NCBI RefSeq assembly: GCF_003790525.1 | Contig: NZ_CP033633.1 | Origin: Escherichia coli | GTDB lineage: Bacteria; Pseudomonadota; Gammaproteobacteria; Enterobacterales; Enterobacteriaceae | DNA length: 64,000 bases | Direction: 5' to 3' (one strand) | Part shown: positions 56,678 through 56,740 of the stretch, piece by piece | Layout of the letters: every line of letters begins with the position of its first letter | Numbering within the stretch: the first letter of the stretch is position 1 | Program-made: the position numbers and the translations under genes | The notes under the pieces: generated by a model | The model's database searches: none | Seen by the model: only the letters and a program-made list of their open reading frames with translations | Told to the model about the DNA's origin: nothing

Positions 56678-56740
56678 ATCTTAACTTCCAAAGGGTACTC
56701 CCGCCGACATAAGGCGGGAGTACCCTTTGGAAGTTAAGAT
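56678..56740. repeat. Perfect 28-bp-arm inverted repeat with 7-nt loop
   Basis: ATCTTAACTTCCAAAGGGTACTCCCGCC-GACATAA-GGCGGGAGTACCCTTTGGAAGTTAAGAT. Confidence 0.85.

Follow-up and report, generated by a model that had tools for sequence, protein, structure and literature searches.

The stretch of DNA analysed here (the window) is 64,000 nucleotides of Escherichia coli contig NZ_CP033633.1, and it carries a long perfect palindrome in a short native plasmid segment downstream of trbC. The first-pass annotation of the window had placed this palindrome between an IS256-family and an IS66-family element, and the coordinates of the two elements confirm that location. In the list below, IS-X is the working name used in this analysis for an 1818-bp element of the IS200/IS605 family, LE and RE are left and right ends, and a slash set between spaces within a sequence marks a boundary.

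55319-56632: IS256-family element (Transposase_mut ORFs), the upstream neighbour of the native segment
56633-56759: native plasmid segment between the IS256-family and IS66-family elements; it resumes at 59467
56666-56679, minus strand: tip (ATGGAGGATGTCAA / ) of a right-end remnant from the IS605 family, older and unrelated; the ancestral plasmid has this remnant in full
56675-56743, no strand: full perfect palindrome, from repeat search and fold (z = -13.9)
56676-56679, plus strand: CCAT, the native target and cleavage tetranucleotide (from the dadA empty site and from pRM10042-1, ...TCCTCCAT / )
56680-56720, plus strand: genuine IS-X LE, consisting of the 18-nt linker CTTAACTTCCAAAGGGTA and the subterminal hairpin CTCCCGCC-GACATAA-GGCGGGAG
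56721-56738, minus strand: reverse complement of the 18-nt LE linker, which is the second LE tip
56739-56742, minus strand: native CCAT (ATGG on the plus strand), in the ancestral plasmid too
56760-59458: IS66-family element (DDE_Tnp_IS66, TnpB_IS66) with the 8-bp flanking duplication ATAAGAAC
59594-61867, minus strand: trbC

A repeat search found that 56675-56743 is a perfect inverted repeat. Its two 31-nt arms, at 56675-56705 and 56713-56743, are 100% complementary and are separated by the 7-nt spacer GACATAA. The perfect hairpin had thus been recognised correctly in the first pass, but its extent had been understated there as 28-nt arms at 56678-56740. The immediate flanks are AAAACC and GGATGT, and the palindrome lies 135 nt downstream of the trbC stop codon when the IS66 element is removed from the count. 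As single-stranded DNA it folds at -39.3 kcal/mol, compared with -9.6 +/- 2.1 for dinucleotide shuffles (z = -13.9), and none of the 200 shuffles folded as well. By our own arithmetic, about 1e-13 perfect inverted repeats of at least 31 nt with a short spacer would be expected by chance in 64 kb.

The earlier view that this hairpin is no terminator is borne out, since the palindrome has no T-run and no terminator-like site was found on either strand in 56400-57000. An intrinsic (rho-independent) terminator was accordingly rejected as a candidate: the combination of a G+C-rich stem and a T-run is absent. A search of the palindrome against Rfam gave solely sub-threshold matches to miRNA precursors (52 bits, against a gathering score of 95), and these were discounted because any long hairpin draws matches of this kind.

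The palindrome is a real sequence and not an assembly artefact, because it recurs in at least 12 independent assemblies. An identical 79-nt stretch that includes it is found in 10 plasmid records, and of the 14 E. coli plasmids in the window's trbC lineage, about 12 carry the palindrome by our own count. These plasmids come from separate isolates from several countries, with chickens, chicken meat and cheese as sources. Altogether the palindrome unit was found in 16 plasmid records, with one copy per replicon. A palindrome query against E. coli gave matches in 111 of 5426 genomes, and 137 of the 145 places are on plasmids; the 8 chromosomal places listed are ordinary IS ends or partial matches, and involve the IS-end portion of the query only. 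Patterns specific to the palindrome had no matches in viral and metagenome collections.

The IS-X left end

The left arm of the palindrome, its loop and the first 8 nt of its right arm make up the 45-mer CCATCTTAACTTCCAAAGGGTACTCCCGCCGACATAAGGCGGGAG, and 45/45 nt of it are CCAT followed by the IS-X LE through its hairpin. With the palindrome as the only query, this 45-mer was found in about 150 plasmids and a few chromosomes, and in those records it forms one end of an element 1.8 kb long, whose tnpA and tnpB genes are divergent. The TnpA of IS-X matches Y1_Tnp (PF01797, E = 6.6e-38), and its TnpB matches OrfB_IS605 (PF01385) as well as the Cas12f1-like TNB domain (PF07282). IS-X is common on IncI2, IncI and IncF plasmids, and in the literature on IncI2 mcr-1 plasmids the element there is loosely called "IS200". 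It may be an IS609-like element.

The way IS-X inserts can be read from dadA, where the empty site in K-12 is ...GATCCCAT / ATGAGG... and the interrupted gene reads ...CCAT / CTTAAC...(1818 bp)...GATGTCAA / ATGAGG. From these filled and empty sites it follows that IS-X inserts 3' of CCAT, that the CCAT belongs to the target, and that no duplication is made. The LE consists of an 18-nt linker and then a perfect 8-bp hairpin, and the GGTA before the hairpin foot complements CCAT. In the RE, the terminal TCAA comes some 10 nt past the hairpin. When folded, the native LE is a quasi-palindrome: 8 bp form its inner stem, and TCCAAA pairs with TTTGGA in the outer one.

In the window, the LE at 56680-56720 is 100% identical to the LE of three full IS-X copies, and the second LE tip joins it within or at the 8-nt stem repeat GGCGGGAG. 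The palindrome runs in the order CCAT, LE linker, LE hairpin, reverse complement of the linker, and ATGG. Judged by this match, it is derived from an IS200/IS605-family LE. Beyond the palindrome, no IS-X body, RE, tnpA or tnpB was found anywhere in the window.

The paradigm of the family is IS608 of Helicobacter pylori, which has TTAC 19 nt 5' of its left hairpin, TCAA 10 nt 3' of its right hairpin, and guides 5' of the hairpin feet (PMC3201880). IS-X has the same kind of subterminal hairpin and the same arrangement of an outside target complementary to a 4-nt guide, and it is also like IS608 in inserting without target duplication and in the position of TCAA after the right hairpin. The two differ in the distance from the cleavage site to the LE hairpin, which is 18 nt in IS-X against 19 nt in IS608, and in the target, which is CCAT in IS-X and TTAC in IS608. 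Compared with an IS608-type LE, the palindrome is an LE fused to its own reverse complement, with no RE, tnpA or tnpB. It is not a complete or mobilisable IS200/IS605 element: it has no RE on the same strand, it is no simple insertion, and it is present in a single copy.

IS-X was also seen in several other settings. The filamentous ssDNA phage If1, which is I-pilus specific (NC_001954.1, 8454 nt), carries a full-length copy with 97.5% identity over 1818 nt at about 5311-7137 of the record (locus 2605-4431), 3' of GTTGCCAT. The record labels this region 'major intergenic region' and 'ORF348 homologous to eryA', and If1 minus IS-X would be about 6.6 kb; this is a case of a single-strand transposon within a single-strand phage of IncI-plasmid hosts. 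A variant of IS-X lies between ardA and psiB, in the leading region of IncFIB/IncI-gamma/K1 plasmids (two loci, locus coordinates 3001-3080), and its guide is GGCTA for GGGTA, still abutting CCAT. The IncI2 mcr-1 plasmid NZ_CP127003.1 has two direct copies of IS-X at 21.5 kb and 26.7 kb, 5 kb apart. Ends of the IS-X type were seen in Photorhabdus khanii and K. pneumoniae ATCC 13883 with a 30-mer contig scan, whose query is the reverse complement of a normal LE and is unspecific for the palindrome.

Scar sites and their ancestral counterparts

The trbC-proximal sequence of the window's plasmid type is found in 14 E. coli plasmids only. Two of them, pRM10042-1 and a plasmid from a CFIA food isolate, are without the palindrome and have 200 nt of other DNA, or its remnant, at that place. 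The site in pRM10042-1 reads TCCTCCAT / 200 nt / ATGGAAAACC, or in wider view ...CAGGTCTTTGACATCCTCCAT / 200 nt / ATGGAAAACCGACATAAGAACC..., and its 200 nt are bounded by a plus-strand CCAT and a minus-strand CCAT. When the window without its IS66 element is compared with pRM10042-1, the left flank is identical at 46/46 positions and the right flank at 164/165, and the 59-nt LE/LE' core of the window (CTTAAC...GTTAAG) stands for the 200 nt. The 200-nt form is taken as ancestral because an older minus-strand RE remnant runs uninterrupted across the left boundary in it (...GGGCATGGAGGATGTCAA / ). The hairpin and body of this remnant were removed by the palindrome event, from which the remnant itself is separate. 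The RE-tip 12-mer just left of the palindrome is thereby explained as part of the older remnant that was present in the ancestor.

The first-pass annotation had suggested a protein-binding or recombination site, or a structural element of the native region, and had proposed looking for the palindrome downstream of trbC in other plasmids. It is found there across the sub-lineage and is missing from the ancestral-type relatives. The suggestion was right in that the palindrome is related to recombination, being derived from a transposase-binding LE, and wrong in that the palindrome is not native: pRM10042-1 and the plasmid from the CFIA food isolate hold other DNA exactly there, and the same palindrome is found in unrelated replicons.

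The phage-plasmid pEC16-2 provides a second exact comparison, with a relative that is 99.9% identical. There, 166 nt between native ...ATCAACCAT / and native / ATGGCTGC are replaced by the same core, and a small conserved ORF lost part of its length in the exchange. The scar in a Klebsiella plasmid has a native left CCAT, which lies inside an IS3-family transposase gene, and the rest of that IS3-family element and more is gone. Both arms of the Klebsiella scar carry a T-to-C / A-to-G variant which is also in a K. pneumoniae IS copy, and this reflects descent of the scar from the local IS. Compensatory evolution was considered for the paired variant and rejected, since both arms bear what is the local IS variant. 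The scar in Arsenophonus apicola pArsBee1 consists of CCAT, the LE, 10-11 nt of IS interior (GGGAATTTGG), an inverted LE tip and ATGG. With its other junction and its Arsenophonus IS variant, it is a separate event.

The scar arms end at CCAT and ATGG, with 0 or 1 further nt, in 4/4 contexts; an ancestral comparator for both sides is at hand in 2/4 of them. The junction sits at the inner LE stem in the scars of E. coli and Klebsiella, where the repeat is GGCGGGAG (8 nt), and at the outer LE stem in that of Arsenophonus, where it is TTTGG. By sequence comparison, the scars are shown to be two opposite-strand LE-target junctions which have lost the intervening DNA and are joined at a short repeat supplied by the LE.

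The 200 nt that were lost (2795-2994 of pRM10042-1) are a decayed IS605-family 3' region, with a tnpB C-terminal pseudogene and a right end. On the minus strand, 2855-2898 of pRM10042-1 gives a weak match to RAGATH-18 (26 bits against a gathering score of 44.9, E = 0.012), which may reflect a TnpB guide-RNA-like scaffold.

Further traces of IS605-family ends are present in the window. The exact 12-mer GGAGGATGTCAA has 3 occurrences, compared with 0.35 expected. A solitary IS605-family right end (GTTGAAGCAGGAACCCACGTCCTTAGGGCGTGGAGGATGTCAA / ) lies at 12231-12273 on the plus strand, between the cytochrome b562 and TraI/NikB-like relaxase genes, and no tnpA or tnpB was found near it. A second hairpin, TTGACATCCTCCAC-GCCCTGACGAAT-GTGGAGGAATGTCAA, lies at 59551-59591, one base past the trbC stop codon. 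Its arms are an IS605-family right-end tip and an inverted copy of that tip, and its minus strand has 19 nt (AGGGCGTGGAGGATGTCAA) in common with the solitary right end. This hairpin may be the right-end counterpart of the LE/LE' scar, and no ancestral comparator exists for it.

The 10-mer CCGACATAAG occurs twice near the scar, at 56702-56711 in the LE hairpin and loop and at 56747-56756 in the native right flank, for which the chance is very roughly estimated at ~3e-4. The flank copy shares bases with the target duplication of IS66, ATAAGAAC. The flank copy is older than the scar, since the ancestral plasmid has it, and the doubling could be a coincidence, an older LE relic or a factor in the choice of site.

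Routes to the palindrome

The reading we favour, and consider reasonably probable, is that the palindrome is an inert scar of IS-X: two inverted LE-target junctions left when a tail-to-tail IS pair collapsed. We infer a route in which IS-X first sat at one CCAT site, and a second copy then entered the opposite-strand CCAT about 200 bp away. Most simply, the second copy would come from the first, re-inserted by peel-and-paste into the other strand. The outcome would be a tail-to-tail inverted pair of IS-X copies, with LEs outward and REs inward. Such a 1.8-kb inverted repeat with a short spacer would be unstable, and the precursor is expected to have been short-lived. A deletion spanning the foot of the snap-back stem would have resolved it, with its endpoints in direct repeats of GGCGGGAG on both arms, or in Arsenophonus in repeats of TTTGG(A) from the outer LE stem. 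The product would retain CCAT, the LE linker, the hairpin, the inverted linker and ATGG, and the IS bodies and 200 bp of host DNA would be lost.

The weakness of this route is that it demands two opposite-strand insertions within about 200 bp, in four separate lineages. In the plasmid and E. coli collections, neither CCAT site of the scar lineages is occupied by IS-X in any record. No precursor was found at the pEC16-2 sites, and the matches that seemed to have 17 nt of flank in common turned out to lie elsewhere, with a similarity due to chance. Nor was a close inverted IS-X pair seen; in the one two-copy plasmid that was inspected, the copies are direct. The mirror RE/RE' scar, searched for with one junction design, was absent from 240 plasmids with an IS-X right end, and this hints at a factor specific to the LE.

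The principle of the favoured route has a parallel in Tn10. In its nearly precise excision (Ross, Swan and Kleckner 1979; Foster et al. 1981), snap-back pairing reportedly promotes loss of the DNA between short repeats that lie close to the outer ends of two inverted IS copies, and a short palindromic remnant stays behind. As in events of that type, the junction of the palindrome is at short direct repeats, and its boundaries are native opposite-strand CCAT sites. Tn10, however, is a composite transposon of the DDE cut-and-paste kind, designed with two IS10 copies in inverted orientation, whereas IS200/IS605 elements transpose as single strands.

The closest precedent is found in the long palindromic REP singlets (a-palindrome-a^c) of P. 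fluorescens SBW25, which arise by excision of the REPIN centre (Bertels & Rainey 2011, PMC3337134); one such excision was caught by population sequencing (PMC3337134). The singlets have the same architecture as the palindrome, with an outer flank, a small central palindrome and the complement of the flank. Both have two inverted ends recognised by a Y1 (HUH) transposase, with everything between them lost. REPINs are short, multicopy, RAYT-associated and chromosomal, and the doublet is their normal mobile unit. In the scar, by contrast, the presumed doublet would be two full 1.8-kb ISs, 166-200 bp of host DNA were lost, and there is a single copy per replicon. The palindrome is not one of the high-copy chromosomal repeats with a RAYT gene that make up the REP, BIME and REPIN class.

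One insertion would suffice if the palindrome arose from a single IS copy by template switching during replication, of the quasipalindrome type. The nascent strand would fold back on the inner (8-bp) or outer (6-bp) stem of the LE, the linker and CCAT would be copied in reverse, and re-annealing downstream by microhomology would delete the IS body and adjacent DNA together. This is a serious possibility, if an unlikely one: the native LE is already a quasi-palindrome whose two stems are ready-made primers, both junction types sit exactly at the 3' ends of these stems, and the return would rely on microhomologies of 4-5 nt (ATGG or ATGGA), a length typical of such events. A fold-back copy could stop anywhere, however, yet the arms end at CCAT and ATGG in all four contexts, and the right boundary is a native minus-strand CCAT in 2/2 cases with an ancestor, for which the chance is roughly estimated at ~1e-4. 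That both outer boundaries are TnpA target sites would suit an event catalysed by the transposase itself, in which TnpA joins the LE 5' ends to CCAT on both strands, or cuts the 3' foot of both hairpins. The first would amount to paired half-integrations; the second would be a symmetric cut of two inverted copies, and incomplete symmetric excision of REPINs has been proposed to work in this way. Two observations are in line with this idea: in the published account, the product of REPIN excision has its cuts at the 3' end of each palindrome (PMC3337134), and the search described above found no RE/RE' counterpart. We nevertheless rate it as rather improbable, because cleavage at the hairpin foot is no known activity of IS200/IS605 TnpA, and because the Arsenophonus junction, 10-11 nt beyond the hairpin and at the TTTGG repeat, suits slippage better. 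By our own topological reasoning, a simple opposite-strand transfer of LEs would yield dumbbell or dimer products instead of the palindrome.

The comparison of filled with ancestral sites weighs on the remaining explanations. It is very improbable that the palindrome is a small mobile element (MITE, PATE or REPIN-like) inserted downstream of trbC, even though a 67-nt unit recurs in four unrelated contexts and the minus strand of the window shows the perfect right-end tip GGAGGATGTCAA after the palindrome. The 166-200 nt of native DNA were replaced and not added to, and CCAT and ATGG are both native. The neighbouring RE tip predates the palindrome, as it is in the ancestor, and the other contexts have no RE. 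The unit is also not multicopy, with its 16 plasmid records and its lack of viral or metagenome matches. PATEs and MITEs from IS200/IS605 elements are non-autonomous and keep the IS end hairpins, as the palindrome does, but they have an LE and an RE and are mobile and multicopy, whereas the palindrome has two LEs, no RE, and stands in place of host DNA. A 78-nt mini-IS on the minus strand (CCAT / LE...GGAGGATGTCAA / ) was rejected because pRM10042-1 places the RE tip in the older remnant. A MITE about 207 bp long, with the palindrome at one end and the hairpin beside the trbC stop codon at the other, was rejected as well, its internal 100 nt being found only beside trbC, in 14 plasmids. A native functional hairpin, whether a trbC terminator, a protein-binding site or a single-strand initiation site, is scarcely credible. 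The structure is very stable, close to trbC once IS66 is left out, and 100% conserved within the sub-lineage, but this conservation is due to recent common descent. The palindrome is missing from ancestral-type plasmids with the same trbC, it has no T-run, and its Rfam matches are sub-threshold only. The filled and ancestral sites leave practically no room for a mobile mini-element, a native functional hairpin or an artefact.

Scars of single-strand transposons

The palindrome is probably immobile, since it has no RE or transposase, and since a 31-bp stem in ssDNA would bury the CCAT and the GGTA that TnpA needs unpaired. It probably has no role in trbC expression and no present function. In this window it should not be treated as a regulatory or transfer-related trb signal.

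IS200/IS605 elements are usually taken to enter and leave a site precisely, with no footprint. A literature search found no account of LE/LE' scars from bona fide IS200/IS605 elements. It is already known that IS fragments are commonplace, and the principle of the palindromic remnant is known from Tn10 and REPINs. With four independent scars, two of which have exact before-and-after sequences, the supposedly scarless single-strand transposons can be seen to leave a footprint. This footprint can take 166-200 bp or more of the adjoining DNA with it, which matters when the history of a plasmid is reconstructed. Annotators can recognise the nature of a "mysterious perfect hairpin" by comparing one arm and the loop with an IS end.

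As their architecture is shared with the long palindromic REP singlets, the scars are a concrete example of Y1-transposase ends turning into symmetric palindromes. The origin of REP/REPIN-type symmetric elements is an open question (PMC3337134). LE/LE' palindromes might be the product of an undescribed side reaction of peel-and-paste transposons, either re-insertion nearby on the opposite strand followed by collapse or a concerted TnpA reaction on both strands, although we think this unlikely. If true, the side reaction would delete host DNA and make long perfect palindromes with a transposase site on both strands, and ends like those of IS200 would thereby take a natural first step in the direction of symmetric elements of the REP/REPIN type.
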